64,000 nt of DNA from Escherichia coli (lineage in GTDB: Bacteria; Pseudomonadota; Gammaproteobacteria; Enterobacterales; Enterobacteriaceae): NCBI RefSeq assembly GCF_022846255.1, contig NZ_AP025682.1; one strand, 5' to 3'. The notes under the pieces were generated by a model. The model was not told the DNA's origin. It did not search any database and worked only from the letters and a program-made list of their open reading frames with translations. The translations under genes and the position numbers were made by a program. Of this stretch, positions 9,891-40,321 are shown piece by piece (position 1 is the stretch's first letter; each line of letters starts with the position of its first letter).

Positions 9891-9930
9891 CGCAGTGAGG
9901 TGCGTGGTTATTTCAATGGGTAAAATTTTG

Positions 9931-10008
9931 GTAGGCATGATAAGACGCACAAGCGTCGCATCAGGCATGGTGCACCGGATGTCGGATGCGGCGCGAACGC
10001 CTTACCCA
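9931..10008. repeat. BIME-like pair of REP elements
   Basis: gtaggcatgataagacgcacaagcgtcgcatcaggcat and cggatgtcggatgcggcgcgaacgccttaccc between convergent yohF and yohD. Confidence 0.6.
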
Positions 10009-10019
10009 GGGCAATGGTT

Positions 10020-10598: not shown

Positions 10599-10767
10599 AG
10601 GACAGTCTGTCTCCCTTTGCTTGCCTGTAAGCATACACCCTGTGAATCATTCACGCTGAAAAAGGACGTACATCAGACGGTGCAAATTACATGAGTGAAC
10701 AAAAAATAATCACAAGCTGACTTATACTTGAACTGTCAGGTTCATGAACTCACAACAAGGGGGCGGT

Positions 10768-11355: not shown

Positions 11356-11528
11356 AAAGTTCTTTTGCGCTGCATTGCTGGCGTAAATGTCAGCAATGCA
11401 GCATTTCCTCACGATTCTTCTTTGACGATCGCACTTTTTGCTCGTTATGATGGCGTCGCTAGCCTCAGTAAATCCTTACTCCGGCGGTGCGCAACCCGTG
11501 CGCGTGAACCACTATCTGAATGCTCATC

Positions 11529-12461
11529 ATGCCGAAATTTCGAGTTTCTTTATTTAGCCTGGCCCTGATGCTGGCTGTGCCTTTTGCACCGCAGGCCGTT
11601 GCGAAAACGGCAGCCGCTACCACCGCGTCACAACCGGAAATTGCCTCCGGTAGCGCGATGATTGTTGATCTGAATACCAACAAAGTGATCTATTCGAACC
11701 ACCCGGATCTGGTGCGTCCGATTGCGTCTATCAGCAAATTAATGACCGCGATGGTTGTGCTGGATGCACGACTGCCGCTGGATGAAAAACTAAAAGTGGA
11801 TATCAGCCAGACGCCGGAGATGAAAGGGGTCTATTCGCGCGTACGACTGAACAGCGAAATCAGCCGTAAAGATATGCTGTTGCTGGCGCTGATGTCTTCA
11901 GAAAACCGCGCGGCGGCAAGCCTTGCGCACCATTATCCCGGTGGTTACAAAGCCTTTATTAAGGCGATGAATGCGAAAGCGAAATCGCTCGGAATGAACA
12001 ACACGCGCTTTGTTGAACCAACCGGATTGTCGGTGCATAACGTTTCAACCGCCCGTGACTTAACCAAACTACTTATTGCCAGCAAACAATATCCGTTGAT
12101 CGGGCAGTTAAGTACTACCCGGGAAGATATGGCAACCTTCTCTAACCCGACGTATACGCTGCCGTTTCGCAATACTAACCATCTGGTGTATCGTGATAAC
12201 TGGAATATTCAGTTAACCAAAACCGGTTTTACCAATGCGGCGGGCCATTGTCTGGTGATGCGCACGGTTATCAATAATAAACCGGTGGCGCTGGTAGTGA
12301 TGGACGCGTTTGGCAAATATACCCATTTTGCCGATGCCAGCCGCCTGCGTACCTGGATTGAAACCGGTAAAGTGATGCCTGTTCCGGCAGCAGCGTTGAG
12401 CTATAAAAAACAAAAAGCCGCCCAAATGGCGGCGGCGGGGCAGACGGCGCAGAACGATTAA
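11529..12461 (+). CDS. pbpG: D-alanyl-D-alanine endopeptidase PBP7
   Basis: ORF track 11520..12461; signal peptide; SxxK active-site motif (ASISKLMTA); recognised as PbpG. Confidence 0.9.
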
Positions 12462-12499
12462 ATGAATGACGGATGGCGATACTCTGCCATCCGTAATTA

Positions 12500-14215
12500 T
12501 TACTCCACTTCCTGCCAGTTTTTCCGCTTACTGGTTTTACCGATCCCCGGATTCATACTGTTGGTCGGATCGTTCTCGCGATAAAACTTCTGCAACGTCT
12601 CCGGTGCTTTATACAAATGACCGACGTTATGTTCGGCAGGGTATTGCGCGCCGCGCTGCTGTAGCAGTTCCAGCATCTGTTCTTTCAACGCATGCACATC
12701 CACGCCTTTTTTAACGATGTAATCCTGATGGAAGACATAGCACATAAAATGGCCGTAATAGAGCTTGTGCACCAGCTGGCAGTCGATCTCCGGCGGTAAA
12801 TGCTCATACCACTCGGTGTCGTTACGCCGCAGAGCGATATCCAGTGCCAGAATGTCTTCGACTTCATCGGAATGCACCGCCTGATAACGAATTGCTGCGC
12901 CCGCAGCGGCGAAACGGTGTAAAAACGCTTTGCTGCCTTCCTCCGGCGTACAGACAAAGAAATCGCCTTCGGCCTGTTTGAAATAATCCACCAGCCACGA
13001 TTTGGCTTCACCGACGCCATCGCCCGCCATTTTTAACAGCAGATGATGTTCGTATTTATCGCGCCAGTTTTTCATGCGCGGCGGTAAATGGCTGGGGAAC
13101 AGGTGACCGAATTTTTGCATCGCACGGTCGGTAAAATGCGGACGGAAGAATTTCACTTTCTCCAGCATCGCATCGGTGCGCCCCTTGAGATTAAAGAAGA
13201 ACGGCATCTTGTCGGTGCCTAACTTATCAATCATCAGGAAGGTGTCTTTGCCGTATTTTTCCGCTATATCGTAGATATCCCGGTGCATATATTCCCCGGC
13301 AACCGGCAGATTTTCGAAATTAGCCAGAATATGACGGCGGATTTCGGTCAGTACTTCCGGCTGGTTGGTGCCGATATAAAACACCTGCTGATTTTTTTCC
13401 GCTTCGAAGGTATCAAGACGAACCGCAAAGACGGCCAGTTTTCCGGCGCAACCGGAGGATTCAAACAGGCGATCCGGGTCGGCGTTATAACGTGCGGGCG
13501 TGTCGGCTTCAATATCACGAACGCGGTGGACATAGTCATAATCGTGGGCGTGACGGCCATCGTGGCGCACATCGTCATCTTTGATGCGATCGTCATCCAG
13601 CTTGCTAAGGATCTGCTCCGGCGTTTCGCCCAGATCAATCCCCAGATGGTTCACCAGCGTCAGTTTGCCATCTTCATTTATACGCGCGAATAATGACATT
13701 TCGGTATACGCCGGGCCACGTTGCACCAGCGAGCCGCCCGAGTTGTTACAAATACCGCCGATGACCGATGCGCCTATACACGATGATCCAATCACTGAGT
13801 GCGGTTCGCGTCCCAGCGGTTTGAGGGCTTTTTCCAGTGAATAGAGCGTGGTGCCCGGATAGGCCAGCACTTGTTCGCCCTTGCCGAGAACGTGCAGCTT
13901 GTCGAGACGCAGGGTGCTGATGATCACGATATCGCGATCATAATCGTTACCGTTTGGCGTCGATCCTTCGGTCAGGCCTGTATTGGCAGCCTGCATCAGA
14001 ATAATTTTGTCAGCGGTGACGCAGGCTTTCAGCACCCGCCACAATTCCAGTAGTGAGCCAGGGAAAACGACAGCCAGCGCGTCGCCCTGACCAGAACGGA
14101 AGCCCTTGCGATAGCGGGCCGTTTTGGCGGGATCGGTGAGCAGGTGTGAATGACCGACCAGACGGGCAAGTTCATTCAAAAAGGCTTTATTATCAGTTGT
14201 TGTCATGGAAGACAT
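12500..14215 (-). CDS. dld: FAD-dependent D-lactate dehydrogenase (571 aa)
   Basis: ORF track 12500..14248; start at MSSMTTTDNKAF (14215); recognised as Dld. Confidence 0.92.
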   Translation of the reverse strand: MSSMTTTDNKAFLNELARLVGHSHLLTDPAKTARYRKGFRSGQGDALAVVFPGSLLELWRVLKACVTADKIILMQAANTGLTEGSTPNGNDYDRDIVIISTLRLDKLHVLGKGEQVLAYPGTTLYSLEKALKPLGREPHSVIGSSCIGASVIGGICNNSGGSLVQRGPAYTEMSLFARINEDGKLTLVNHLGIDLGETPEQILSKLDDDRIKDDDVRHDGRHAHDYDYVHRVRDIEADTPARYNADPDRLFESSGCAGKLAVFAVRLDTFEAEKNQQVFYIGTNQPEVLTEIRRHILANFENLPVAGEYMHRDIYDIAEKYGKDTFLMIDKLGTDKMPFFFNLKGRTDAMLEKVKFFRPHFTDRAMQKFGHLFPSHLPPRMKNWRDKYEHHLLLKMAGDGVGEAKSWLVDYFKQAEGDFFVCTPEEGSKAFLHRFAAAGAAIRYQAVHSDEVEDILALDIALRRNDTEWYEHLPPEIDCQLVHKLYYGHFMCYVFHQDYIVKKGVDVHALKEQMLELLQQRGAQYPAEHNVGHLYKAPETLQKFYRENDPTNSMNPGIGKTSKRKNWQEVE

Positions 14216-25238: not shown

Positions 25239-27242
25239 TCATCCTTGTTGCTGAAGCATGGGGAATAATTGTTCGCAAAGCAAAACACCGTTATTCATTG
25301 CTTCTACCCGTGCCTCGCTTTCTGTATTACGAAATTGTCCCAACACATGTGCCAGCCGATAAAAACCCACCGCGGTGAGGTCATTCGCCAGCAACTCTGC
25401 CTGACCAATAGCACTCTGTTCCTGATAGCGCCAGCCGTTATGGAGCAGTTGAATAAGTAACGCCTGGCAGCGCATCAGCAACTGATGAGCGGTAGACGGC
25501 ACAGGCAGAACGCTGGCAGAAGGTAGCGGTGCCACAGGCGCAGTTTCTGCGTCCAGCGCCCAGGCGCGGGTTTTTGTCATCATCACCCGTGGTTCCAGTG
25601 TTAATTGCCCCTCTACAAAACTGACAAAGCCAGAAACCAGGCTCACGGGGTCGTCTGTTTGTTGCAAAAGCGCCGCCATGCGTTCAACGGCAAAAGGAGA
25701 ACAGGCAGATGCCGGAAGGGATAACGTCAGCACATTATCTTCCCCTTCGCCGCTGATTACCTGCGCATCCAGTGTCTGGCGGCTGCTATCCCAACCGAGC
25801 GAAATACACTCCGCTACCGGCAGAATAAATAAGTTATCGACCTGGTTGAGTGGTCGTATGCAGGCGGGGGGACGCTGGCGTAAATATTCCCGCAAAGCCA
25901 CAATGCCCGGCTGGCGCAACGGCGCGCTCAACATTAGCCAGGCGTCTGGCGACAGTGGAACAACGCCACTCAAGCGGTTACGGGTCGCGAACAGCAGCTC
26001 GCAATCGGCACTGCGTTTTGCAGCTTGTGAAACAATTTGCCCACCTGCCAGTGCGCCAGCCTGAAAACTAAACAGCCGACGCGTCGCTGCCGGTGAGTTT
26101 TCCTGTTCGCTTCTCTGCCAACTACGCGAAAGATGCAAAATACTTCCTGTGTCGGGATCGGTAAACCAGATGCGTAAACCATACTGCTCAATATCCTGCC
26201 AGCAACGCATACCTAAAGACACCAGCCGCAGATGATCAAGTTTTGCTTCTCCGGCAATACCAGCGCCAACGACCGTGCGCCACGGCATGGGAGGAACTTC
26301 ACCGATACTGTCGCGTCGCGCCATCTCTTGTACGCAATTTAATCGACTGTTTAATGCCGCAAGCTGACGTAAGCATTCTCCGGCATGGTAGTGGCTGGCA
26401 CGGGCGTGGAAGGCATCAACACTGGCGCGCAATTGCCGTAGCGATTCACTCACCCATCGCCAGTTGCAGCGTTCCGCCGCTTGCTGCGCGCGACTGAAAG
26501 CGGCCTCGTAATGGATTGGCGGTTGACTTATCCCGCCCAGCCATAATGCCTGGCTTAATTGCTGAACATATTGACGACACGTTTTGCCTTCTTCGCTGGC
26601 AAACGGATCATCAGATGATGTGGCGTGTTCACTGCGCATCTGCCAGATTAAATGAGTAAATTCCGCTTGCTGAGTTTTGGCCTCGACGAAGGCCTGCACA
26701 GCCAGTACGACATGTTCGCAAAGTGTGCCTTCAATGCAATCACAGCGTGCGAAGCGAATGCTGCTGCGGGAATAAAAACGCACATCGCTCATCGGTAATC
26801 GGGCAGAGGGAATTTCGCCAGGCGCACAGAACAACTCAATGGTGATGCCTTTAGCGACCAGCGCCTGCGCGCGTTTGCGGGTGGCATCGGGCAAGGTAGC
26901 CAGTTCTTTCAGCCAGATTGCCGGATCCCACTCTTCTTCTTTTTTTTCCGTAGGCTGGGCGGTGGCACAAAGTCGTTGATAACTTAACACCAGCATCACG
27001 CGATGACGGCACATGCCGCTGGCCCCGCAGGTGCACTGAGCCTCTTTCAGTGCCTGACTGTTCGCCAGCTGTGTACGGACACCGTCACTGAAAGTGGCGA
27101 TTAAAGCGCCGTTCTCATGGCTGATCTCCGGGACGTTGCCATTTTCCAGTTCCTTAAGGCTGCGCTTAACAAAACCGGCATTGCTTAACGCCGTCAGTGC
27201 CTGTGGTGTCAGTTCTAATAATTCCGGACGTAGTGAATTCAT
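25239..27242 (-). CDS. yehQ: SWIM-zinc-finger protein YehQ (last gene of yehLMPQ)
   Basis: ORF track 25239..27266; start placed at Met overlapping the yehP stop (ATGA); two CxCx5CxH SWIM motifs (CTCGASGMCRH, CDCIEGTLCEH). Exact start uncertain. Confidence 0.8.
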   Translation of the reverse strand: MNSLRPELLELTPQALTALSNAGFVKRSLKELENGNVPEISHENGALIATFSDGVRTQLANSQALKEAQCTCGASGMCRHRVMLVLSYQRLCATAQPTEKKEEEWDPAIWLKELATLPDATRKRAQALVAKGITIELFCAPGEIPSARLPMSDVRFYSRSSIRFARCDCIEGTLCEHVVLAVQAFVEAKTQQAEFTHLIWQMRSEHATSSDDPFASEEGKTCRQYVQQLSQALWLGGISQPPIHYEAAFSRAQQAAERCNWRWVSESLRQLRASVDAFHARASHYHAGECLRQLAALNSRLNCVQEMARRDSIGEVPPMPWRTVVGAGIAGEAKLDHLRLVSLGMRCWQDIEQYGLRIWFTDPDTGSILHLSRSWQRSEQENSPAATRRLFSFQAGALAGGQIVSQAAKRSADCELLFATRNRLSGVVPLSPDAWLMLSAPLRQPGIVALREYLRQRPPACIRPLNQVDNLFILPVAECISLGWDSSRQTLDAQVISGEGEDNVLTLSLPASACSPFAVERMAALLQQTDDPVSLVSGFVSFVEGQLTLEPRVMMTKTRAWALDAETAPVAPLPSASVLPVPSTAHQLLMRCQALLIQLLHNGWRYQEQSAIGQAELLANDLTAVGFYRLAHVLGQFRNTESEARVEAMNNGVLLCEQLFPMLQQQG

Positions 27243-28375
27243 GACTGAAGATTCTCCGCAAGCCATGATGCCAGCTCGCCCGGTGTCATGGCGGCTATTT
27301 GTGCGCCGACATTTACCAGCGCCTGGGCCGTATCGTGGTCATAGCAAGGTGTTGCGCTGCTATCGAGCGCCGCCAGTCCCAGCACTTTGATGCCGCTCTG
27401 GACACACTTTTTCACCTGATGCGTCAGCAATGATGATGACCCACCTTCATAAAAATCGCTCACGAGAATAATGACACTTTTTGCAGGTTGTTCAATAAGT
27501 TGCCGACCATACTCCACGGCACTGGCGATATTGGTCCCGCCGCCCAGTTGTACTTTCATTAATAACTCTACCGGATCGGCAACGTCTGCCGTGAGATCAA
27601 CCACGCTGGTGTCAAAAGCGACCAGATGGGTACGAATGCCGGGTAACTGCCATAAACAGGCCGCCATCACTGCGGAGTGGATCACCGAATCAACCATCGA
27701 TCCGCTTTGATCAACCAGTAGGACCAGTTGCCATTGTTCGCTATGGCGTTTAATGCGGCTGTTAAAGCGGGGGGATTCGATATACAACTTGCCGTGTTGC
27801 GGGTGCCAGTGTTGCAGGTTGGCGCGCAGAGTACTTTTGAAATCAAAGTTTCGCGCCAGTGAAATAAATGAGCGGCGACGGCGATCGCGTACTCCAGAAA
27901 AAGCCTGACGAACTTCCTTTGCCAGTCGCGCCATAATCTCTTCAACAACCTGGTGCACTATCCGGCGGGCGGCAGCCAGTACTTCGGGATTCATCAGATG
28001 TTTGGCGTGCAAAACGGCGCGTAGCAGGCTTTCAGAAGGCTGCATACGTTCCAGCACGTCGAGATTCGTCACCACATCTTCAATGCCGTAGCGCAGCACG
28101 GCATCGCTTTCCAGCCGCTCGATCACCCGTTGCGGAAACAGCGTGTGAATGCTGTTGATCCACTCAGGGGTGGTGAGATTTGAACGACCTAATCCACCGT
28201 AACGTTCACCACGCTGGAGCCGTTCAGGATCGCGCCCATACAGCCACTCCAGCGCGTGGTCTATCTGCCGGGCGTTGTCATCCAGCCCACAAAGCGTCGT
28301 TTCTGCCGCTTCGCCAAGAATTAATCGCCAGCGTTGTAGCTCACGGGTGGTCAGAAGATCGTTCAGTTCAGACAT
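27239..28375 (-). CDS. yehP: von Willebrand factor A (VWA) domain protein YehP (378 aa)
   Basis: ORF track 27239..28603; start at MSELNDLLTTRELQRW; MIDAS DxSxS motif (LVDQSGSM). Confidence 0.88.
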   Translation of the reverse strand: MSELNDLLTTRELQRWRLILGEAAETTLCGLDDNARQIDHALEWLYGRDPERLQRGERYGGLGRSNLTTPEWINSIHTLFPQRVIERLESDAVLRYGIEDVVTNLDVLERMQPSESLLRAVLHAKHLMNPEVLAAARRIVHQVVEEIMARLAKEVRQAFSGVRDRRRRSFISLARNFDFKSTLRANLQHWHPQHGKLYIESPRFNSRIKRHSEQWQLVLLVDQSGSMVDSVIHSAVMAACLWQLPGIRTHLVAFDTSVVDLTADVADPVELLMKVQLGGGTNIASAVEYGRQLIEQPAKSVIILVSDFYEGGSSSLLTHQVKKCVQSGIKVLGLAALDSSATPCYDHDTAQALVNVGAQIAAMTPGELASWLAENLQS

Positions 28376-30646
28376 GGAAAACTCCCCAGTGTTGCAGCGA
28401 TGCCAGTGCCTGCTGTTCGAGTTGTTGATGATGTGCAATGTCTTGTGGTGGACAATGCAACGGCATTTGCAGTGCCGAAACGGGAAGTTGCACCAGTTGA
28501 TAATGCTCAAGCACCTGATGTGCCAGCGTCCCGCGTTCTCGTGGTGGTAGCCAGGCCATCGCCGCGCGTAAATCGGGCAGGGCATTGATAAAATCGGCAT
28601 CACTCAGTTGATTTAAATGACTGCTGAAACCGGCGATAAATACCGGCTGACAGGCCAGTTGATGACGGGCTAATGCCAGCAAACCGTGCAGCGCCTCGCC
28701 GGATTGTGCCGGGGATAACTGCGCCAGCATCGTCAGCGCCGTTTCGGCACTGGCGTTGGGATGTTCCAGACGCATCAGTGCGCCAAGAGTCGCGCCGCGA
28801 TCCAGCGCCGGGGCATGAATCGCCTGACTGCGGCGCTCCAGTAAGGCTACTGCCGCAGAAAGCGAAACGCCGGGTAAATTAACGCCGCTATGTAGATCGC
28901 GCAGGATATGGCAAAGCGCCTGCCAGCTATGCAGGTGAGTGTGAAACTCCTTTTCATCCGGTCTGCCGTTGGATTCACATAGCCAGAGTGTGCGATCGAT
29001 AGCCGCGCATAACGTCGTCTGTAATATCTGCGCGCCTTGCATACCGCTAATTTCATCCAGCCGCCATAAGGCATATAGCACTTCCAGCGCCTGGCCCATT
29101 TCGGCGAATTGATTTTCCTGGGCGATTAATAATGTGAGTTGCTCCAGTAATTGTTGACTGAAGGACGCCAGACCCGCTAACGCCGCCTGGCTAAGACATG
29201 TGGTGATACTGCCGATTCCACCCGCGTCCAGCATATCGGCTTCTAATTTATTGCGTGCGGCTTCCTGGAGTGTGGCACCAAAGCAGGCGGCCTCAATTAA
29301 TGCCGCATGTTGCTAAGCGGGCGGGTTAATTTCCAGCGTTCTTCACCGTTGCCTGCAAGTGTCAGTGTGCTTCCCTGCTGGCGTACAATCCCTGGGATCT
29401 CCAGTATTGCCAGCCGATGTAACACCTGACTTTGCGCTAGTCCATTGGGGGTAAAGCGATTTAAGGTAAGCTCCGCCGGAAGAGAGATTGCGGTACGTTC
29501 CAGTTCGCAGGTGACATCTTTTGGCAGAGGCGGTTGTGGCGTAGAAGGGGCAAGTTTACCGAATCCGTCACCCGCTAATGTGTCTATCAACGTTAGCAGA
29601 ATCGGATCGGTATCGGGATGAATAACGCCGCGATAGCTCCACGGCAACGGCGCATTCAGGGCTTCTTTAATCAGCGATCCTGCTATGGCATCCAGCCAGT
29701 CAGTGCGTAACGGTAGTGTATGACCGCGCAACTGTGCCAGTGCCATCGCATGCAGATGAGCGGCAGCCATATCCGCGGTCGAAGCAGGCAACTTGTGCTG
29801 GCGCAAACGGGTGAGAACCGTTTTTAGCAATTGTTCTCCCGTCTGCTGTAAGCCCCACTGCCAGCACCAGTTTTGCCAGACCGGGGCAGGCATTCCTGAA
29901 AGGTATCCTGCCAGCACATCAAGGCGCTTTTCACTGTAGGGGGTGAGATAACAACCTGTAACGGCATCTGCCAGCGACGGCAATTCTGGCGTGTTAATTA
30001 CCTGCGGACATTCGCGCCACATTTTTGCCAGTGCCGGAGCGTGCCAGCCACCGCAGACAACTAACACGTCGCCATTATTTTGCTGCATCGCCCATGTAAT
30101 CCAGCGGGCCATAAAGGCTTCGCGCTGACGATTGAGAGCATCTCCGGGGGAGTCGCCCCGCAGTTGGGCAAAATAGTGCGCCAGTGCAGAGGGTAATGCA
30201 GTTTGCTGGCTTTCATCTTCGAACAAGTGATCCCACAGGGTGTCGCTGTTATCCATGCGGGTGGCACGCAGCAGCAAGGTCTGGCTTTCCTCTTGCGTAT
30301 CAGGCGAATCGTCCTCTTCTTCACTCTGCGCCCAGCAAGGCAAATCGATGAAGTAAGTTTGTGCCTGAATACGACGAGCGGCTTGTAGCGCCTGCCACTC
30401 CGGCGAAAATTCAGCATATGGCGTCCAGGCACCACGCCCGGGGGCTGCACCGTCCTGATACTGGCAATAACTGTAAATAGCTACCGGAAGCTGGTGGGCT
30501 AAAAACAGTTCGTCTACCCGGTCATTAAAATCAGCCGGGCCTTCAATCAACACGTATCGTGGCCGCTGGCTTTCGATTAACGATTTCACCAGCCGGGCGC
30601 AGGCCGGACTATGATGCCGGATGCCGACAATTAACGGCTCGCTCAT
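28368..30646 (-). pseudogene. yehM: yehM, split into two overlapping reading frames by an apparent 1-nt frameshift near 29300-29312
   Basis: N-terminal frame (ORF track 29297..30814, yehM start MSEPLIVGIRHHSPA at 30646) ends at a stop at 29297-29299; C-terminal frame (ORF track 28368..29234) is open upstream to about 29312. Span is 2279 nt, one short of the 2280 expected for the 759-aa protein. Confidence 0.7.
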
Positions 30647-30656: not shown

Positions 30657-31745
30657 TCACGGCAGGCGGTGGCGGGCTTGATAATAAGCCTGCCAGTGAG
30701 CTTCTTTATGTGTGGCGACTCGCTGTTCGAAGTAACGGCGCAGACGAGCGCGATCTTCTTCGTTATCTTTGACGATGGTTCCGGCAATACAGTCCACCAG
30801 ATCGGCTGGCTCACCTGCGCGATTCGCTAAAAACCAGGCGCGGACGCCCACTGCGTGGGCCACGTTCACGGCTTCAGCGGTGGACATAATTGCCGTCAGG
30901 GTATCCATTGACGTTTTCTTTTCGCCGTTGGCACGCAGATCGCGGAAGGTGCGGACCAGTAACTCCAGTACCGCGTCAGGCACTTTATGCGGAATACCGC
31001 TATGGGCCAGCAAACGCGCCGAAGCACTGGCGACCAGTTCCAGCTCCTGGGCGAAATCCATAATCGGAAAGACGGTTTCAAAATCGAAGCGACGCTTTAG
31101 CGCGGCACTCATCTCATTGACGCCGCGATCGCGTGTATTGGCAGTGGCAATAATATTAAAGCCTTCCCGCGCATAGAGCTGACTGGCTTCACCGGTGAGT
31201 TCCGGCACCGTCATCACCCTGTCAGAAAGCATACCTAACAGACAGTCTTGTACTTCCAGCGGTGTACGCGTTATCTCTTCAAAACGGACGATTTTGCCGT
31301 CGCGCATTCCCTGGTAAAGCGGGGCAGGGACCAGTGCTTCCGTTGACGGACCATGGTTGATAAGCAGGGCGTAGTTCCAGCCGTACTTGATTTGATCTTC
31401 GGTGGTAGATGCGCCGCCCTGGATGGTTAACCCGGCATCGCCGCTAATAGCGGTTGCCAGTAATTCAGACAGGAGAGATTTTGCGGTGCCAGGTTCCCCC
31501 ACCAACATCAAACCGCGCCCGGTGGCAAGAGTGACTAACATACGTTCGACAGCGGAGGGACTAATCACCACTTTACGGCTAATATTTTGCGCGCTATCGC
31601 CAAGGATAAAAGCACGGGCCGCAGGCAAACTTAACTGCCAACCGGGCGGGCAAGGTGCGTGATCATTTTGTTTTAATTTTGCCAGTTCATCGGCGTATAA
31701 CACAGCGGCAGGCGGACGCTGCAGATGATTATTCTGCGGTGACAT
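30657..31745 (-). CDS. yehL: MoxR-type AAA+ ATPase YehL (362 aa)
   Basis: ORF track 30657..31811; start at MSPQNNHLQRPP (31745); Walker A GEPGTAKS; MoxR-like architecture. Confidence 0.88.
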   Translation of the reverse strand: MSPQNNHLQRPPAAVLYADELAKLKQNDHAPCPPGWQLSLPAARAFILGDSAQNISRKVVISPSAVERMLVTLATGRGLMLVGEPGTAKSLLSELLATAISGDAGLTIQGGASTTEDQIKYGWNYALLINHGPSTEALVPAPLYQGMRDGKIVRFEEITRTPLEVQDCLLGMLSDRVMTVPELTGEASQLYAREGFNIIATANTRDRGVNEMSAALKRRFDFETVFPIMDFAQELELVASASARLLAHSGIPHKVPDAVLELLVRTFRDLRANGEKKTSMDTLTAIMSTAEAVNVAHAVGVRAWFLANRAGEPADLVDCIAGTIVKDNEEDRARLRRYFEQRVATHKEAHWQAYYQARHRLP

Positions 31746-31854: not shown

Positions 31855-31939
31855 ATAAAAAAACCTGCTGGTGAGGCAGGTTCTTTTATTTACTATTTTC
31901 AGGCCTAACACCACAGCCTGTGCAACATCGTGTTCCAAC
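31855..31939 (-). ncRNA. Candidate antitoxin small RNA (OrzO-like), about 85 nt
   Basis: Minus-strand sigma70-like promoter (-35 TTGCAA at 31969-31974, 17-nt spacer, -10 TATAAT as complement of 31946-31951); intrinsic terminator (7-bp stem 31862-31868/31876-31882 followed by a U-run on the minus strand); 5' segment complementary to 32086-32105 of the toxin 5' UTR. Confidence 0.5.
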
Positions 31940-31945
31940 GAACGA

Positions 31946-31996
31946 ATTATAACCACGGCTGGACCCCGTTGCAATTAAGATAATGAGATTTATAAT
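31946..31996. promoter_or_regulatory. Divergent back-to-back promoters sharing one palindromic -35 hexamer (TTGCAA)
   Basis: Plus strand: TTGCAA (31969-31974), 16-nt spacer, TATAAT (31991-31996), predicted TSS about 32001-32004. Minus strand: the same TTGCAA read in reverse, 17-nt spacer, TATAAT (complement of 31946-31951). Confidence 0.5.
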
Positions 31997-32177
31997 CCAG
32001 ACCGTTGGGACGTTGCGCCGGATCGAACCTATTTCAAGTCCTGGCTACCGGACGGGTGGTGCTGCAGGTGGTGCCCTGATCCGGAGTGCAACATCGTGGT
32101 CCAACATACGTAAACCAGTATCGACAGGCAGTGTAAGGGTAAGGTGCTGGTGTTGCGCTCCTTAATAAGGAGAGCGG

Positions 32178-32267
32178 ATGGACACGCTGACACAAAAGTT
32201 AACCGTGCTCATTGCTGTACTGGAGCTATTAGTGGCTCTGTTACGGTTGATTGATTTGTTGAAGTAA
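32178..32267 (+). CDS. zorO: 29-aa hydrophobic type I toxin candidate (ZorO-like / TisB-like)
   Basis: ATG at 32178 preceded by SD TAAGGAGA (32166-32173); product MDTLTQKLTVLIAVLELLVALLRLIDLLK is a single amphipathic/hydrophobic helix with a basic C-terminus; predicted 5' UTR of about 174 nt; own terminator follows. Gene name assigned from memory of the Zor-Orz family, not verified. Confidence 0.6.
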   Translation: MDTLTQKLTVLIAVLELLVALLRLIDLLK

Positions 32268-32319: not shown

Positions 32320-32507
32320 GCTATACTCGCCATACTTCAAGTTGCATATGCTGCGACTTGAAGTATGATGAGTATATTATTCTATTTCTTGGTTGAATAT
32401 ATTCTGTAGTTCACAATTAAAAATTGCTATTACAGTTTCATGTGATTCACCTCGTAATTTCCGCTCATCAATAAACTCATCTCTTGTATAAATCAACGCA
32501 TCATTTA

Positions 32508-32693
32508 TTAGTGGTCGGCATCTTCTCGATCACGTTGATGAAATGTTGGATGTAGCCGGAATCGTTCCAGTCGATAGACGGAACCTGTAAATAATTCAGA
32601 GAATTTATGGATCTCAAGTCTGAAGGAAAACGGATCTTCAGGAGCAGGAACCTCATAATCGTAAATAGCAACCAGCTCTTTTTGCACGATCAT
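32508..32693 (-). CDS. Hypothetical small protein (61 aa); possibly a remnant or variant of the yehK-position gene
   Basis: ORF track 32508..32693; a 15-codon ATG-initiated frame immediately downstream of the yehI stop runs into it out of frame; no recognisable domain. Confidence 0.3.
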   Translation of the reverse strand: MIVQKELVAIYDYEVPAPEDPFSFRLEIHKFSELFTGSVYRLERFRLHPTFHQRDREDADH

Positions 32694-32753: not shown

Positions 32754-35700
32754 TTAATGGAAAATAACGTCGGGTGCGCTTAACGCTTCACTCAAATCAA
32801 ACACATCAAGTTCGGCAAAAGTGACGGATTTATTGTCACGGTAAACCCGAAGAGAACGGAAGCTCATTAGCGCTTTGCTATCAACATTGTAGTGGTTAAA
32901 GCCGGGTGAAAACTTAAGGACCAGCCGGTACGCACCTAAGTCATAGACAAATGCGTCCTCATAGCCTGACTCCCAGCCTTTGTATCGCATTCCCATAAGT
33001 TGACCAACGGTAGCGGATTTACCTTCCCAGCGAGTCAGGCTGTTACTGGCTGACTCGTCAGGTGTGAGCAGCACCGTGCGCCGCGCCAACTGGCGAAAAG
33101 GCGGCATAATTTCGTAATCGGCAAAAAGCTGTGCAAATTCACTGCGCATTTCTGCTGCCATTTCTAACGGGTGGGCAATGCCAATCAGAGCATCTGCAGG
33201 CAGGTCAATGGACTCATCTTGTGCATTGCAGAACTCCCCCTCTGCGGCCACACGAAAGGCGTTGAGTAAACGACGCGGTTCATTTGCCGGATAAACCCCC
33301 CATATTAATCGCTGGGTAACCAGGCGGGTAAAGGGATGATTAACAAACAGAGAATGAAAATCTGCCAGCGACCAGCGTCGGGTGGTGCGCAGGGCAGTTT
33401 CAAGACGCGGGAGCAGGTTTTTGCTCACCTGAGAGGCATCTTTTTTTAGCCCTTTTAGTCGGGCCAGTGCCTCGGGGGCTTTCAGTTGATCGTCATCGGC
33501 GCGCAACCGGGGAACGCTTTTCTGGCGAACGTTTTGTTGATCGTAGATAACCGGGTTGAGGTTTTCATCGAAGCGAACGGTAAATTGCCGTGGACCAAAA
33601 TCAAAAATCAACGCCTGCGGATCATCAAGACCCAGTGTTGGGACTAATCTGTCCGCTAACTCTTCCTGGCTTAGCCCGCGATTTTCTGCGACCACCTGAA
33701 GAAATTCCGCCGCGTTATCACGTAAGGAGCGGGATTTCGCCCGTTGGGATATATGGTGCAGCTGTATCAGCGCCATATCATTATTCATCAGGGTAAGGAT
33801 GTTCAGGCCACTGACAGCACGGGCAGATTTGCCTTCTTGTGGCCAGGCGAGGATCTGTGTCGTCAGATCCCGAGCCGTGCTTTCGTCACCAAAGAGACTT
33901 AACGCCAGAAATGCCCAGTTGTCTTTTGCGGGGGCTCCAGCTTGTTGCCATGCGGTGAAAAGATCCCAGGCAAAAGCTGCCAGCGTTTGCGGCTGGCAAA
34001 ACGTTTTCAGCTGTTCCAGTCCGCCATAAAAACGTCCGCCCTGGGTAAAGCGCAGCATTTCGCCGATAATTTCCAGAGCGTCATCGGTAACAGGCTGATT
34101 ATTCTTGATAAGGCGCGGCCTGGACCACATTGCCGGATGCCAGAAATCAGGAGCTTTTGGAATACGTGCCGGGTAAATTTCTATTGGACCCAGTTTAAGT
34201 AATTGCTCCAGGGCAGGCCATACATCTGTACGCTGCCAGCGGTTTGCCACGGTTTGCAGTAATTCGCCATGCCCTTGTTCATACAGTAAACGCAGGGCAA
34301 GTAATGCAGCTTCGCTATTATCGCTGGGTTTTGTAAAGACAAGAGGGATAAGTGCAGTAGCCGTATGTTCCGGCCATTGTAAAATCCACTGGCGAGCCAG
34401 ATCACGCTGCGCCGCGAAACGTCGCCAGACGCGGGCAACGGGCAGGGCCAGTTCTGTTGCGCCGAAATTTAAAATTAACGGAAATGTTTCTTTTGGATGA
34501 TGTGAAAAAGCCAATAACAGGCCAGGTAATGTATCCAACCCGAGGATACTGAGAAAATAGTCCTCACCCGCGAACAGATGCTTTTTCTCATTGATACGCA
34601 GCCAGAAAGTCAAAGCCATCTCACGCGGCAACTGTGCCAATAAATACAGGTTCCAGACACTCTTTTCCGGACGATAACGTGAGTAGCTATCATTTTCCCA
34701 GGTGTTAATTAACGCTTCAACGTCGCCGGAACGAAGCGCCTGTTCGGCTGATTTTGCTTCCGTGGAGTGCCAGCCATTGTTGATTTCCTCTACTCTGCGC
34801 GGGGAGTAATGCCACTGACCCACTAATGATTTGCGCGCCGCATCCAGTTTGCCGGGCAGTATATAATTCCGGAACAGCCATACATCATCCCCAAAACCTA
34901 GCTCCTGTAGTACAACTCGACCACTTTTTCGTTCCATGCGTTCCGTAAAAGATCCCGTGCTGAAATAACGGGCAGACTCTGTGGCGGCAAGTCTCTCTCG
35001 TTCGCCTGGTTGCCAGCGGGCTTTGGGCGCTAATTCAAGAGGCACTAAATCAAGGCGCAGCAATGCCGTTTTTTTCTTACCTCGCCACGGTGGAGAAACA
35101 AGTATTTCTGGCAGGTCGTTGCTATGAGTACTCTCGAAAGCAAGTTTTGGCGATGCCGATAAATAACCATTCACCACTGCCTGGGCTTGTGTACTTAAGC
35201 ACGGCATCACCTCTTCTGCCAGTTGTGGCTGCGATGCCATCAGCGTTTGTAACAGCGTATGCCAGTATTCATCACGTGCTTTTTGCTGTGCAGGCAGCTT
35301 TTTGTCTTCGATGATGGGATAACCAGGGCGCGCAGGGGGGGCTTTTAACGCCAGCAGTTCTGCCAGTGCGGCGAGCGTCGCATGGGGGAAGTTTTTACTG
35401 TATTTAGCCACACGTTGCAGGCTGGGTTTGTTTTTATCAGCCACCAGTAGCAAGGTGCGGATGACTTGCGGATGGTTAATTTGTACCAGCAGACTGCCGC
35501 AATCTTCTTTATGTGCATACATCGAGAGGCGCGGAACGGCTGCCAGTCCTTGTTCGCGCAAAAGGGCAGCGCAGGCCGCGTAGCCGAAGTGGTTTTCATG
35601 CGACATGTAGCTGGCTTCTCGATCGCTAAATATATCCTGGCTCCAGTAACGTGCGAGTTCTTTCACCGCCTTAGGGTCATCAGCAACAACTTTTAACCAC

Positions 35701-36386
35701 TCTTTTGAGCGAAAATGAGTTTGCGAACATTCAAGGCTTACCAGCTCGTTGGCGATTTCGGGTTTTTCCGGGAGGTTCAGAGCAATAAAAGGGCGGCGAA
35801 CTTTGGTTATTCCTGGCAGTGCGGCAATGAGTTTGTCGGCGCAACGCTGCCAGCAGGTTTCCTCTGCCAGAGAGAGATGCTTACGTAATCGGAGATCGAA
35901 TTCGTTATAGGTTTCTGAGCGATAACCATAGCCATAGTCCTCGTTCTGATACTGCAATGTTACTACCAGAGGATCACTCTCATAACACCGTACAATAAAC
36001 TGGCGTGCAATCACCACCTCAGTTGCATATTCCAGCCCCTCTTGTTGGACGATTTCGTCGAGCAACTGTTGGCTATCATTTTGCGCGATACAGGCTAGCG
36101 CCGCCATTGTCCGGGCCGTGATTGAGGGTTTGTGTTCGCCGATCAAGTTGATGGCCTGCGTGATGGCGGACTGCCACTCCAGTGAAAAGTTTTCATAACG
36201 CCAGACAATGTTTTTTTTCTTCTCTGCTTTTTGTAGCAATTCATCACCCAGTGTCTGAATGATGCTTTCAGTGATAACAGGCACCGGTTCGCCTGGCCAA
36301 TTGCGATGGCTGAGTGGTGTTTTGCCTTTTTTATATTTAAGTTCCAGTTGGGCGTTATCCGCCAGCCACGGTAATTCCTTGTCCAT
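32754..36386 (-). CDS. yehI: Large uncharacterised protein YehI (1210 aa), paralog of MolR
   Basis: ORF track 32754..36386; shares multiple sequence blocks with the adjacent MolR ORF (for example FxLRLRKHLSLAEE and LPEKPEIA). Confidence 0.85.
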   Translation of the reverse strand: MDKELPWLADNAQLELKYKKGKTPLSHRNWPGEPVPVITESIIQTLGDELLQKAEKKKNIVWRYENFSLEWQSAITQAINLIGEHKPSITARTMAALACIAQNDSQQLLDEIVQQEGLEYATEVVIARQFIVRCYESDPLVVTLQYQNEDYGYGYRSETYNEFDLRLRKHLSLAEETCWQRCADKLIAALPGITKVRRPFIALNLPEKPEIANELVSLECSQTHFRSKEWLKVVADDPKAVKELARYWSQDIFSDREASYMSHENHFGYAACAALLREQGLAAVPRLSMYAHKEDCGSLLVQINHPQVIRTLLLVADKNKPSLQRVAKYSKNFPHATLAALAELLALKAPPARPGYPIIEDKKLPAQQKARDEYWHTLLQTLMASQPQLAEEVMPCLSTQAQAVVNGYLSASPKLAFESTHSNDLPEILVSPPWRGKKKTALLRLDLVPLELAPKARWQPGERERLAATESARYFSTGSFTERMERKSGRVVLQELGFGDDVWLFRNYILPGKLDAARKSLVGQWHYSPRRVEEINNGWHSTEAKSAEQALRSGDVEALINTWENDSYSRYRPEKSVWNLYLLAQLPREMALTFWLRINEKKHLFAGEDYFLSILGLDTLPGLLLAFSHHPKETFPLILNFGATELALPVARVWRRFAAQRDLARQWILQWPEHTATALIPLVFTKPSDNSEAALLALRLLYEQGHGELLQTVANRWQRTDVWPALEQLLKLGPIEIYPARIPKAPDFWHPAMWSRPRLIKNNQPVTDDALEIIGEMLRFTQGGRFYGGLEQLKTFCQPQTLAAFAWDLFTAWQQAGAPAKDNWAFLALSLFGDESTARDLTTQILAWPQEGKSARAVSGLNILTLMNNDMALIQLHHISQRAKSRSLRDNAAEFLQVVAENRGLSQEELADRLVPTLGLDDPQALIFDFGPRQFTVRFDENLNPVIYDQQNVRQKSVPRLRADDDQLKAPEALARLKGLKKDASQVSKNLLPRLETALRTTRRWSLADFHSLFVNHPFTRLVTQRLIWGVYPANEPRRLLNAFRVAAEGEFCNAQDESIDLPADALIGIAHPLEMAAEMRSEFAQLFADYEIMPPFRQLARRTVLLTPDESASNSLTRWEGKSATVGQLMGMRYKGWESGYEDAFVYDLGAYRLVLKFSPGFNHYNVDSKALMSFRSLRVYRDNKSVTFAELDVFDLSEALSAPDVIFH

Positions 36387-36395
36387 GCTCTTTCC

Positions 36396-39300
36396 TTATT
36401 CAAACAGGGCTTCAATATCGTTAATTAGCTCGCTGGCGGTGATGGCATCGAGTACGGAGAACTGCGCTTCCTGTGTTGAATTACTCCCCCAGCCATAGCT
36501 TTCCGCTTTGCCTTCCCATAGCCACAGCTTGCTTAAGAGTTGCTCGGCACTCAGTTCGGCTGGCGACATGCCTACCGCAAAACCTTCATCGATTTCCATG
36601 ATTAACGACCAGCGGCCCAGGGGGTTGATCATCCAGCCGATCCAGCCAGCATCCTGCGGGGTGCCCTTTATCCAGCCTTTATTCGCCAGCCCCATTATCC
36701 GACCACTCGGGCATTTTCTGCCTGTCCAGCGTGTCAGTTCGCTGGCGTTGCGCTCGGCTTCTGTCAGCGCGTAACTGTTACGATCAAGCTGGCGGAACGG
36801 TGGTAACAGTTCGTAGTCGGCAAAAAGCTGCCCGAAGGCGGCAGCATCCGTCGGTGATATTTCCAGAACGTGAGGAATACCAATAGAGATATCGCCTTCC
36901 GGCAGGGTGAAAAGATCATCGTCAGCGGTGCTGTAGCTGTTATCTTCCGCTACGCGAAAGCAAGCCAGTAGCTGGTTTTCGGCGCTATAAACGCCCCAAA
37001 TCAGACGGCGGGTTAAGTGGCGGACCAGCGGATGCTCAACCAGGAAGAGCTGAAAGTTTTCCGGTGACCAGCGGCGACGCAGGCACATGGCGGATTCCAG
37101 CCTTGCTACCTGCTGGGCGGCGACGGTACGCGCATCTTTTTTCAGCAATTTGTAGCGGTTAACAGCATCGTTCGCCTGTGATTCATCATCGCTTTTGTTT
37201 GGTTTGGGCAGGTCTTTCAGACGACTGCCGGAAGCGTCACGCACAAACGGTTTTAAGGTTTCATCAAAGCTGACGGTGAACTGGCGTGGGCCGAAATCCA
37301 GCAACAACGAACCATTATCATCCAGACCGAGATCCGGTGCTAACCGATCTTCAAGCTCCGCCACCGTGAGTTCGCGGCTCTCGGCAATGTCGGCAATTTT
37401 TTCTTTTGCCCGCTCCTGTAATGCTTTGAATTTCAGTTTCTGGGCGATGCCGTTAAGCTGCATCAGGGCGATATCACTACCGATAGCAGCGAGAATATCC
37501 AACCCGACGGTGGCGCGTTTATGCTGGGATTCACCAGGCCAGGCGCGAATCAAAGGCGTCAGTTTGCGGGCGGTGTCATCGTTACCGAGAACGCCTAACG
37601 CAGTGAACGCCCAACTCTCTTTCGACGGCGCGCCAGCGGTCTGCCAGGCGGTAAACAGATCCCAGGCAAATTCAGCCAGTGAGTCGGCGGTACAGGCATC
37701 TTTCACCTGCAATAATCCCGGATACAGCGCCTCCTCCTGATGGAAGCGGAGCATTTCACCGAGGTGCTGGAGTGCGCTATCGGGCAGTGATTGGGCGTTT
37801 GCTTTTAATACCGGGCGGTTCCAGAGCGATGGCTGATAAAAGGCCGGAAGAGTGGGGATTTTTGTCGGGTGATTATCTAAGGGATCGAGCGCAAGCAGAG
37901 CGTTCACCGCGTCTGTTACTTCCGGCTGGTTATAACGCCGGGCGATTTCTTGCAGTAATGGCTGATGACCGTTTTCGGTAAGCATACGCAAGGCAGCGCG
38001 GGCGTTATCCTGGGCTTCACCGGCTTTGCCGAGCGCCGCAGGCAGCAGGCCGGTAATGGCGTGTTCCGGGTATTTCAGCAGCCAGATACGGGCATCTTGT
38101 CGTAGGGTTTTGAGTTTGTTGAAGGCGCGGGCGACGGCAGGTGCCAGCTCACTCGCTGCGAAGTAATTCGTTATGGGCAAGGCTTCCTGTGGATAGCGTG
38201 CAAGTGAGTTTACTAACCCAGGTAATCCTTTGAGTCCAAAATGTAACATGGCGTATTCGGTATCGGTATGCGGAGATAGAGTAAGGGCATTCCATGCTCT
38301 TACTGCTTTCTCCAGCGGCAATGTTGTCAAAATCCCCAAATGCCAATAATGCCCGGTAGGTGAATGAAACACCTTAAATTCACTTATTAAAGTTGAATAA
38401 TCTTCATTTAGCCATGCCTCAACTACCGCTTCGGGAGCTTTAATATATGTACCAGCGATCCGTCGTTGAAAACCCATCCTTGCCAACAGATTGGCAGTAC
38501 TTTCTTCATGACTAACCGTGATGTGTTTTGAATACCAGATATATTTCGCCAAAAGTTGATTACTGATTTCTTCTGTCAGATAACTGATTGGCTCAATACC
38601 TAATGGTGCTAAATCAAGCACTGGAATCGGCGATTTTTTCTTTTTCGAAAGCCATGGTGGGGAGACTACTATGACCGGCAGTAGATCGGCGCTGGCATGG
38701 TTTGAGGGCTGTGTCAGTTGTTGCTGGCATGATTTCAGCACTGCAACTGCGGGTGTCGAAAGCCAGGGAATGACCTGTTCTGCTAGTGTCGGTTGCGAGA
38801 TAAGCATCGTCATTAGCATAATGCGCCAACTATTCTCTTCTTTTTGCACTAGAAGTTCCGCCAGTGCTGCCAGTGCTGCGTGTGGGAACGCAGCGCAGGC
38901 TTTCGTCATTCGATCGTGACAGCGTTTAGTATGCCCGGCTACACGTATAAGCAGTGTTAATGCGAATGGATGATTGATATGACGCAACACATCGGCGCAG
39001 TAGTCACTTGCGACATAGGGAGCAAATCGGGGCAGGGCCGCAACACCTTGCTCCTGTAATACGGTGGCTGACCATATCGCACCACAATAGTAATCATCAA
39101 AAATGGCATATGGCTCGTGATATTTTTCTAATGAGGCAAGAATGTGCTCATCAGTCGCCACTATTTTTAGCCACTCAAGCGAGGGTAATTTCTTTTGCCC
39201 CAGTAGACGCTGGGCAATTTCATGTGCAATTTCTGGTTTTTCGGGTAATAACAAAGCAATTAATGGTTGCCGCCATTCTGGAATATGTGGAACTGCGGCA

Positions 39301-40190
39301 ATAAGTTTTTGTGCACATTTTTGCCAGAGAGACTCTTCCGCCAGTGATAAATGTTTACGTAGGCGTAATTCAAAGCTGGAATATTGCTGCAAATAATCAG
39401 GTGAAATGCCAGACGACAGGAAAACAATATTATTGTTGACATAATCCCATTCAATAGATATTTGTTGAAGATGTATTATTACATCAGTAGCATATTCCAG
39501 ACCGCCTTCCTGAATAATCTGATCCATAACATCCTCACGCTCTTTATATCTCGTGCAGTGCAGTTCAAGTGCCGCGAGTACAGCCATTACCGGTGATGGT
39601 AATTTTGTCGTTTTCGGGCTGTTAATCAGATCGATCGCCTGAGCGATGAAGTTTTGCCACTCTAAAGTACAGGCGCTGAAGTCAAATGTAGCTGTTTTGT
39701 TATCCCGTTGCGACACGCCACAGGCTAAGCGACGTAACTGGGTTAATTTATCTACAGGTGTAACAGGATCTCCGGGAAAGCGGCGATGGCTTAAGGTGGT
39801 GGGTACGACTTCAAGCGGAAAAACGACAGCAATATCTTTTGCCAGCCACGGTAAAATAACGTCTGTATTTTTGTCAGCCACGTAGATTTCTGGTGTAACT
39901 GAGGGCTGTTCCTGAATGATGGTAGAAAAGTCAGATAATTCGAGAGTTTTCGTTACCGTTCGAGTATGTTTCGATGTAGCATTCTCCGCTTGTTCCACAT
40001 ACCCCTTTTTCGTTTTCTCCGCAATCAGCTTGAGTTCCGCTTTTTCCGCCGCCGCAGCATCTGCAAAGCTTTTTACCTGACTTTGCCCGTTGGTGCCGAC
40101 TTTGCCCCAACTGATATTCAGTTCGTTTCCCTGCTGCTCCACCGCCCAGAATTTATGTGATTTTTCGTCCTGAAAGATAAAGTGTCTCAT
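36396..40190 (-). CDS. molR: MolR-like large protein with N-terminal WGR domain (1264 aa), apparently intact
   Basis: ORF track 36396..40190; N-terminus KFWAVEQQGNELNISWGKVGTNGQSQVKSF...KGYVE fits the WGR domain signature; single uninterrupted frame. Confidence 0.8.
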   Translation of the reverse strand: MRHFIFQDEKSHKFWAVEQQGNELNISWGKVGTNGQSQVKSFADAAAAEKAELKLIAEKTKKGYVEQAENATSKHTRTVTKTLELSDFSTIIQEQPSVTPEIYVADKNTDVILPWLAKDIAVVFPLEVVPTTLSHRRFPGDPVTPVDKLTQLRRLACGVSQRDNKTATFDFSACTLEWQNFIAQAIDLINSPKTTKLPSPVMAVLAALELHCTRYKEREDVMDQIIQEGGLEYATDVIIHLQQISIEWDYVNNNIVFLSSGISPDYLQQYSSFELRLRKHLSLAEESLWQKCAQKLIAAVPHIPEWRQPLIALLLPEKPEIAHEIAQRLLGQKKLPSLEWLKIVATDEHILASLEKYHEPYAIFDDYYCGAIWSATVLQEQGVAALPRFAPYVASDYCADVLRHINHPFALTLLIRVAGHTKRCHDRMTKACAAFPHAALAALAELLVQKEENSWRIMLMTMLISQPTLAEQVIPWLSTPAVAVLKSCQQQLTQPSNHASADLLPVIVVSPPWLSKKKKSPIPVLDLAPLGIEPISYLTEEISNQLLAKYIWYSKHITVSHEESTANLLARMGFQRRIAGTYIKAPEAVVEAWLNEDYSTLISEFKVFHSPTGHYWHLGILTTLPLEKAVRAWNALTLSPHTDTEYAMLHFGLKGLPGLVNSLARYPQEALPITNYFAASELAPAVARAFNKLKTLRQDARIWLLKYPEHAITGLLPAALGKAGEAQDNARAALRMLTENGHQPLLQEIARRYNQPEVTDAVNALLALDPLDNHPTKIPTLPAFYQPSLWNRPVLKANAQSLPDSALQHLGEMLRFHQEEALYPGLLQVKDACTADSLAEFAWDLFTAWQTAGAPSKESWAFTALGVLGNDDTARKLTPLIRAWPGESQHKRATVGLDILAAIGSDIALMQLNGIAQKLKFKALQERAKEKIADIAESRELTVAELEDRLAPDLGLDDNGSLLLDFGPRQFTVSFDETLKPFVRDASGSRLKDLPKPNKSDDESQANDAVNRYKLLKKDARTVAAQQVARLESAMCLRRRWSPENFQLFLVEHPLVRHLTRRLIWGVYSAENQLLACFRVAEDNSYSTADDDLFTLPEGDISIGIPHVLEISPTDAAAFGQLFADYELLPPFRQLDRNSYALTEAERNASELTRWTGRKCPSGRIMGLANKGWIKGTPQDAGWIGWMINPLGRWSLIMEIDEGFAVGMSPAELSAEQLLSKLWLWEGKAESYGWGSNSTQEAQFSVLDAITASELINDIEALFE

Positions 40191-40289
40191 TCTGCATCCC
40201 TGTAATTTTATCCAGTTGAATGCAGATGCTATCAGTATTTATGCGGGTTAGAGAGAGACAAAATCGCAAGAAAACAACTTTAGGAATTT

Positions 40290-40321
40290 ATAAAGAAAAG
40301 GCGCTGTCGATACAGCGCCTT
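40290..40321 (-). terminator. Putative metG terminator
   Basis: Hairpin aaggcgctg-tcgata-cagcgcctt just downstream of the metG stop on the minus strand, followed by a T-rich tract on that strand. Confidence 0.5.

Follow-up and report, generated by a model that had tools for sequence, protein, structure and literature searches.

This analysis concerns two very large neighbouring genes, molR and yehI, and the genes yehL, yehM, yehP and yehQ (together yehLMPQ) that follow them in a stretch of Escherichia coli DNA of 64,000 nucleotides (NCBI RefSeq assembly GCF_022846255.1, contig NZ_AP025682.1). The whole stretch is referred to as the window, and all positions are counted from its first letter. 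An initial annotation, made from the letters alone, had described the pair as two adjacent giant open reading frames (ORFs) on the same strand, 9 bp apart, and this description is exact: both frames lie on the minus strand, with yehI downstream of molR. The features of the pair and of the yehLMPQ genes are as follows.

molR, 40190..36396, minus strand: open frame of 1264 amino acids (aa); the protein has a WGR domain, a predicted alpha-solenoid and a DUF4132 domain
yehI, 36386..32754, minus strand: open frame of 1210 aa; WGR-less paralogue of MolR
WGR domain of MolR (aa 5–69), 39984..40178, minus strand: Pfam PF05406, E = 3.6e-18, model positions 6–77 of 79
DUF4132 domain of MolR (aa 988–1173), 36672..37229, minus strand: Pfam PF13569, E = 4.6e-51, model positions 1–179 of 179; inside the conserved C-terminal half
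DUF4132 domain of YehI (about aa 954–1138), 32973..33527, minus strand: Pfam PF13569, E = 8.6e-47
yehL, 30657..31745, minus strand: MoxR-type AAA+ (AAA_5) ATPase, intact; 98.9% identical to YehL of E. coli K-12
yehM, 28368..30646, minus strand: DUF5682 protein; frameshifted pseudogene with a 1-nt deletion at 29312
yehP, 27239..28375, minus strand: VWA protein, intact; Pfam VWA_CoxE, E = 2.6e-71; metal ion-dependent adhesion site (MIDAS) DQSGS at aa 222
yehQ, 25239..27242, minus strand: intact, 667 aa; Pfam SWIM, E = 0.0014 and 0.21

The giant proteins MolR and YehI

In a pairwise BLASTP comparison MolR and YehI are 38% identical over 1187 columns (E = 0), with residues 110–1204 of MolR aligned to residues 2–1163 of YehI, so that the sequence blocks which the two had been said to share reflect paralogy over nearly their full lengths. 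Since both the ORF lengths and the similarity are far beyond chance, the gene pair is real.

For the N-terminus of MolR a WGR domain had been proposed. Pfam indeed finds one there, and a profile of the MolR family matches the WGR domains of the Protein Data Bank (PDB) entries 2ra8 (E = 7e-24) and 2eoc, which is from PARP3 (E = 0.002). In PARPs the WGR domain reads DNA breaks. The N-terminal 70 aa of MolR thus fit the same profile as PARP1–3 and bacterial WGR proteins (2ra8, 2eoc). Unlike PARP1–3, however, MolR has no PARP catalytic domain downstream of the WGR domain, and its central motif is ISWGKVGTNGQ, in which a K replaces the R of the consensus of its relatives (WGRIGTxGQ); nucleic-acid binding by MolR is putative. 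In YehI no match to the WGR domain was obtained with Pfam.

The body of MolR (aa 65–1264) was modelled with AlphaFold2 at a predicted local distance difference test score (pLDDT) of 88.4 and a predicted template modelling score (pTM) of 0.83. In the model, helical repeats extend from about aa 148 to 949 as an alpha-solenoid of approximately 800 aa, and a mixed alpha/beta part follows up to the C-terminus; a C-terminal AlphaFold2 model has a pLDDT of 92.8. No catalytic fold was seen in the MolR model, and nuclease, protease, TIR and other effector folds were likewise not found. Sequence searches of the PDB returned no solved relative of the solenoid/DUF4132 body, and those of NCBIfam returned no family for the giant proteins except that the WGR part of MolR resembled LIC_11051, far under the curated cutoff. 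Judging from the model, MolR and YehI would be non-enzymatic, solenoid scaffold proteins of the HEAT/ARM-like type; together with the role proposed for them below, we give this an about even chance of being correct.

The two halves of the giant proteins are conserved to very different extents. Within the MolR family the column identity is 16–23% at aa 165–664 versus 43–61% at aa 765–1164, and the same gradient is found among the paralogues of Massilia (39% identity in the N-terminal half versus 60% in the C-terminal half). Invariant positions of the C-terminal half of MolR are W703, W849, W884, R969, D1001/D1002 and R1137. The simplest reading of these alignments is that a C-terminal half for docking may be shared by the family while an N-terminal half for recognition has diversified.

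In E. coli K-12 MG1655 molR is fragmented, as the initial annotation had stated. It is represented there by yehF (the WGR part, 274 aa) and the pseudogene yehH, the lesions being one stop codon (TTA to TGA at the position of window nucleotide 39368) and one 1-nt insertion (an extra G at 37345), neither of which is present in the window. That molR is intact in the window strain is thus correct, but it is nothing unusual. Full-length MolR is ordinary in E. coli: the clusters of full-length proteins (1262–1264 aa) have E. coli members in the tens of thousands, so that an intact molR has to be considered the rule and K-12 the exception. By megablast the 7.4-kb molR-yehI region is found in 5,404 of 5,426 complete E. 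coli genomes. RefSeq lists the products as "WGR and DUF4132 domain-containing protein" (molR) and "DUF4132 domain-containing protein YehI", and the window MolR is 97.6% identical to an annotated protein of E. coli TUM14771. It should be noted that the WGR assignment, the paralogy and the pseudogene status in K-12 were previously contained in annotation of the RefSeq/EcoCyc type and are not discoveries.

The yehLMPQ genes and their linkage to WGR-DUF4132 genes

YehL contains the P-loop GEPGTAKS and the Walker B motif FEEITR, and its homologues belong to Pfam AAA_5/bpMoxR. The closest PDB sequences are the AAA domains of midasin (E = 3e-10); entry 2r44 was also matched. Among the MoxR ATPases, YehL is the type member of a subfamily named after it, the "YehL subfamily", which is uncharacterised as to function (PMC3893208). 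YehQ has two SWIM motifs of the form CxCx(n)CxH, at aa 70 and 167. YehM is split in the window into two ORFs of 505 and 288 aa, with a change of frame at aa 439–446 in tblastn; the intact YehM of K-12 is a DUF5682 protein (E = 3e-98). With yehM frameshifted, the YehLMPQ machine as a whole probably does not work in the window strain. For YehM and YehQ the PDB sequence search returned no solved relative. In the window the 3′ end of yehQ (25239–25397) extends 53 codons beyond the 614-aa annotation of YehQ in K-12, the gene of which may be truncated at its 3′ end. E. coli TUM14697, the closest RefSeq relative, likewise has frameshifts in yehM and yehK (a small gene described below) and in addition an internal stop in yehQ.

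From the arrangement of the genes the initial annotation had suggested a possible functional super-cluster, and in other genomes the co-occurrence of the giant genes with genes for MoxR and VWA proteins is very strong. With a family alignment, one genome was scanned for each species of GTDB; the 80 best tblastn matches represented 72 distinct loci, which were searched by tblastn with the proteins of the window. The linkage count was restricted to those loci from other species in which each flank measures at least 5 kb, 45 in all. Homologues of all four genes yehL, yehM, yehP and yehQ lie beside the WGR-DUF4132 gene or genes at 36 of these 45 loci, and some of the four at two more. Usually yehLMPQ directly follow the WGR-DUF4132 gene or genes in the same orientation, the median gap being 104 nt; outside Escherichia the distance from the giant gene to yehL is 15–540 nt. 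The linkage is found in genera of the Gamma- and Betaproteobacteria, Geobacterales, Myxococcota and Actinobacteria. Burkholderia has yehLMPQ before the giant genes instead of after them, and the two groups are still adjacent. For a metagenomic relative with 45% identity, the precomputed Pfam assignments give the same order (AAA_5, DUF5682, VWA, SWIM), with a second DUF4132 gene at the end. It is therefore strongly supported that the giant WGR-DUF4132 genes and yehLMPQ form one conserved module across many phyla. On one metagenomic contig a gene of the AbiEii toxin family (866–1870) lies directly upstream of the WGR-DUF4132/yehLMPQ operon.

The number of giant genes per locus varies from one to eight in tandem, with a single gene in most genera. 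Three are present in Klebsiella and in some E. coli (e.g., TUM14771), namely paralogue A, paralogue B, which is MolR, and YehI. Paralogue A (1265 aa, WGR and DUF4132) is 44% identical to MolR and is encoded between metG and molR (positions 5143–12747 of the TUM14771 locus; also in Klebsiella). Paralogue A and molR are alike in their nucleotide sequences only in the first 200 nt, which are 86–90% identical; this points to gene conversion or recombination at the end that encodes the WGR domain. The possibility that the window MolR itself is a chimera of paralogues A and B was considered and rejected: it resembles B throughout (97–100% in the first two-thirds and 89–97% in the rest) and A at 43–89%.

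The largest array was found in Massilia aquatica (NZ_VVIW01000005.1, merged 10001–43824), where seven intact WGR-DUF4132 genes and a split one occupy 29 kb and are followed by a single yehL-yehM-yehP. Several orphan WGR-DUF4132 copies are present elsewhere in Massilia genomes. In a Pfam census of representatives DUF4132 was found in 38 of 38, and WGR in 30 of the 37 that were scanned at full length. In one representative of 1776 aa (locus 6883–12213) a histidine kinase (HisKA/HATPase_c) is fused to WGR-DUF4132, with a response regulator gene before it and a bpMoxR/AAA_5 gene after it. The family as a whole comprises 2,632 clusters at 50% identity (E ≤ 1e-30). It was found in none of 50,697 phage records and in 27 of 72,556 plasmid records.

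Control and divergence of the locus in Escherichia

The following further features bear on the transcription of the two halves of the cluster.

terminator hairpin of metG, 40298..40321, minus strand: 10-bp stem (6 GC pairs) and a T-run after it; bounds the molR transcription unit on its upstream side
LexA-type box CTGGATAAAATTACAG (CTG-N10-CAG), 40215..40200, minus strand: ends 10 nt before the ATG of molR
yehK, 32380..32693, minus strand: frameshifted by a 1-nt deletion at 32514 (frame change in tblastn, alignment with K-12)
zorO, 32178..32267, plus strand: type I toxin ORF of 29 aa, exact ORF MDTLTQKLTVLIAVLELLVALLRLIDLLK; between yehK and yehL
OrzO antitoxin small RNA (sRNA) with intrinsic terminator, 31932..31857, minus strand: Rfam RF02083, 99.9 bits, E = 4e-17; approximately 110 nt before yehL

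The promoter region of molR is confined to the 107 nt between the metG terminator and the ATG. It contains the LexA-type box, which has an AT-rich spacer and is the sole box of the E. coli type within 300 nt upstream of the start codon. In Klebsiella oxytoca an identical box is present at the identical distance before the first paralogue. The genes of the E. coli SOS regulon have such CTG-N10-CAG boxes, and molR is listed among the LexA-regulated genes with known SOS boxes (PMC6590174; PMC11039860). Among the loci examined, the box before the giant genes is limited to Escherichia and Klebsiella. Besides LexA, BglJ-RcsB acts on molR by activating its promoter (PMC3950696). In Deinococcus radiodurans, depletion of DdrO, the repressor of the DNA-damage response regulon of this organism, strongly increases the expression of the DUF4132 gene drA0166 and of the WGR gene dr2173, whereas the molybdenum genes do not respond (PMC8533742). 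On the strength of the box, the first giant gene of Escherichia and Klebsiella would be under LexA and tied to the SOS response, which, taken jointly with the role that we propose for the giant proteins, has in our estimation an evenly balanced probability.

According to the initial annotation the pair directly precedes yehLMPQ in the same orientation. Order and orientation are as described, but the genes are not directly adjacent: approximately 1 kb lies between yehI and yehL and contains yehK and zorO/OrzO including the terminator. The zorO/OrzO pair was placed between yehI and yehL by Fozo et al. (2010; PMC2887945); the locus is present in a single copy (31857–32267) and explains 325 bp that are absent in K-12. 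A promoter-like sequence (TTGCAA-17-TATAAT) is found near OrzO at 31974..31946. The position of the OrzO terminator just before yehL argues for separate transcripts, which molR-yehI and yehLMPQ of Escherichia would accordingly form.

Compared with K-12, the amino-acid identity is 99.7% for MetG, 98.9% for YehL, 91.6% for YehI and 76.6% for the first 274 aa of MolR (the yehF part). The ratio of nonsynonymous to synonymous substitution rates (dN/dS) is 0.21 for molR and 0.19 for yehI versus 0.012 for metG and 0.044 for yehL. The differences are concentrated in a mosaic of hyperdivergent patches comprising molR codons 1–300 (39290–40190) and yehI codons 400–600 (34590–35190), where the nucleotide identity is 77–88%, the synonymous rate (dS) 0.2–0.5 and dN/dS 0.24–0.45; the remaining cluster is approximately 95% identical. 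The high dS in these patches points to old alleles or to recombination under relaxed purifying selection. Positive selection on molR and yehI was considered and there is no clear signal for it, since dN/dS does not exceed 0.45 in any 100-codon sliding window and dS is raised in the same patches. As to the strain, the flanks (1–25000 and 40200–64000) are more than 98.5% identical to none of the 5,426 complete E. coli genomes, so that it represents a somewhat divergent Escherichia lineage; the dS of metG versus K-12 is 0.106.

Possible function and alternative explanations

RavA-ViaA, CbbQ-CbbO, NorQ-NorD and CoxD-CoxE are MoxR AAA+/VWA chaperone pairs to which the present system can be compared: the AAA_5 MoxR-type YehL is encoded with the MIDAS-bearing VWA protein YehP, and the cluster adjoins genes for large candidate clients or adaptors just as MoxR operons adjoin those for clients. 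It differs from these pairs by YehM, by the double-SWIM protein YehQ and by one to eight giant WGR-DUF4132 proteins, all without a characterised counterpart, and in that no metalloenzyme client is linked to yehLMPQ. The YehL subfamily is said to have been defined by Snider and Houry in 2006, and we know of no member with a known function. The system is also reminiscent of midasin/Rea1, the AAA+ mechanoenzyme of eukaryotic ribosome assembly, whose three blocks are AAA_5, long helical repeats and a MIDAS. Here, however, these blocks are separate polypeptides, and there is neither a ubiquitin-like ligand nor a link to the ribosome; the resemblance is one of architecture, by analogy. Finally, the vWA-MoxR-VMAP systems (Kaur et al., 2020; PMC7159879) have in common with YehLMPQ the core of MoxR and vWA, the large diversifying partners and the expansion of paralogues, but differ in that no VMAP- or effector-associated domains were found in the Pfam and PADLOC scans, in which profiles for VMAP were not included. 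The whole system is an uncharacterised variant of the MoxR-VWA machines; it is neither a PARP nor a recognised defence system.

Within this framework MolR and YehI could be dedicated partners of the ATP-driven YehLMPQ machine, either interchangeable adaptors or clients, which are tethered to nucleic acid, a reading that in our judgement is about equally likely to be right or wrong. The machine would be composed of the MoxR AAA+ ring YehL, of YehP as VWA/MIDAS bridge, of the DUF5682 protein YehM and of the double-SWIM protein YehQ. We infer that the conserved C-terminal half of the giant proteins would dock on this shared engine and that the variable N-terminal half together with the WGR domain would select the target, which may be associated with nucleic acids. 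Hydrolysis of ATP by YehL would then remodel either the target or the scaffold itself. Under control of LexA, as envisaged for Escherichia and Klebsiella, the scaffolds would be made after DNA damage.

There are several points that weigh against such a role. None of the yehLMPQ genes was found at 7 of the 45 well-flanked loci (mostly extra Massilia copies), some WGR-DUF4132 relatives are in other genomic contexts, and the sample of 72 loci is biased towards Proteobacteria. In Escherichia the giant genes are split from yehL by yehK, zorO/OrzO and the terminator. The pseudogenes vary from strain to strain (molR in K-12; yehM and yehK in the window; yehQ, yehM and yehK in TUM14697), which suggests that selection on the cluster is weak in E. 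coli. Outside Escherichia and Klebsiella none of the 72 loci has a LexA-type box as judged by crude scans with patterns of the E. coli, Cheo/actinobacterial, Xanthomonad, Geobacter and myxobacterial types. In the literature no functional study of DUF4132, DUF5682 or PF13569 was found; searches for WGR with MoxR and for the YehL subfamily or yehLMPQ gave nothing useful.

An alternative is that the proteins are part of an anti-phage or conflict system, in which the tandem and rapidly diverging WGR-solenoid proteins would be sensors of invaders and YehLMPQ an NTP-dependent switch, as in the vWA-MoxR-VMAP systems. Tandem arrays of up to eight paralogues would fit, as would the hypervariability within the species (the first 274 aa of MolR versus MetG, each compared with K-12), the presence of paralogue A in some E. 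coli and its absence from others, and the frequent pseudogenisation in the cluster. The region is also an insertion site of a transposon in sequence type 131 (PMC9334617), a toxin-antitoxin locus (zorO/OrzO) is embedded in it, an AbiEii gene lies upstream at one metagenomic locus, and the locus is inducible by the SOS response according to the literature (PMC6590174). On the other hand, PADLOC-DB 2.0 matched none of the eight cluster ORFs scanned (E ≤ 0.01), and among 29 proteins encoded immediately beside the clusters of 15 genera, a small sample, it hit only three, all of these matches being partial and of the helicase type, so that no signal of a defence island was obtained. Effector folds are lacking, dN/dS is 0.2 overall with no clear signal of positive selection, the family is missing from the phage records and rare in those of plasmids, and the paper on vWA-MoxR conflict systems contains neither WGR nor DUF4132, DUF5682 or YehL (PMC7159879). 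We therefore consider a conflict system unlikely. A somewhat smaller probability still is assigned to the view that the adjacency in Escherichia is a relic, molR/yehI and yehLMPQ being independent and decaying, without a joint function and in the window strain perhaps with none. The window has yehM and yehK frameshifted and molR and yehI open, and in K-12 it is the opposite, with molR broken and yehLMPQ open; between the two halves lie the terminator of an sRNA and a toxin gene in convergent orientation; and dN/dS of the giant genes is 5–17 times that of yehL and metG. However, a dN/dS of 0.2 on ORFs of 3.6–3.8 kb still means purifying selection. Moreover, an intact MolR is common throughout E. 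coli, the operon keeps its structure from phylum to phylum, and Escherichia and Klebsiella have the LexA-type box in common.

The characterised MoxR-VWA pairs, such as CoxD/E, NorQ/D and CbbQ/O, function in the maturation of metalloenzymes or enzyme complexes and are encoded beside their clients. By analogy, YehLMPQ could be a chaperone for the maturation of metal cofactors or molybdoenzymes, with the giant proteins as assembly scaffolds. Apart from this precedent, the strong match of YehP to VWA_CoxE and the historical name of MolR, "molybdate metabolism regulator", speak for it; the name goes back to Lee et al. (1990), as cited in PMC8533742. Yet no metalloenzyme or molybdenum gene is conserved beside the operon, the neighbours of which vary by genus, and neither a WGR domain nor control by LexA nor arrays of paralogues would be expected of such a chaperone. 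In addition, the molybdenum genes of Deinococcus do not share the regulation of its DUF4132 and WGR genes (PMC8533742), and K-12 is without an intact molR. A function in cofactor maturation is therefore very improbable.

The adaptor or client reading can be extended further. The WGR-solenoid-DUF4132 proteins with YehL, YehM, YehP and YehQ might be an undescribed and widespread "split-midasin-like" machine, in which interchangeable HEAT adaptors, tethered to nucleic acid, bring a MoxR/VWA motor to DNA that is damaged or to nucleoprotein complexes that are foreign or have stalled. Such a machine would add a new branch to the DNA-damage response (or to immunity), one that came under LexA in enterobacteria and, independently, under DdrO in Deinococcus. 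In this extended form the proposal is tentative, and we think it rather improbable.

For itself the window is of modest value, since its genes had been annotated before and the module is partly inactivated. The significance lies in the family. For many years molR has figured among the LexA-regulated genes of E. coli with no function assigned, and, RavA aside, YehL is the only MoxR subfamily of E. coli that has been given no role. The linkage of the two, together with a variable, putative targeting half and a conserved, putative docking half of the giant proteins, leads to the testable hypothesis that they belong to an ATP-driven remodeller, which may be linked to DNA damage.

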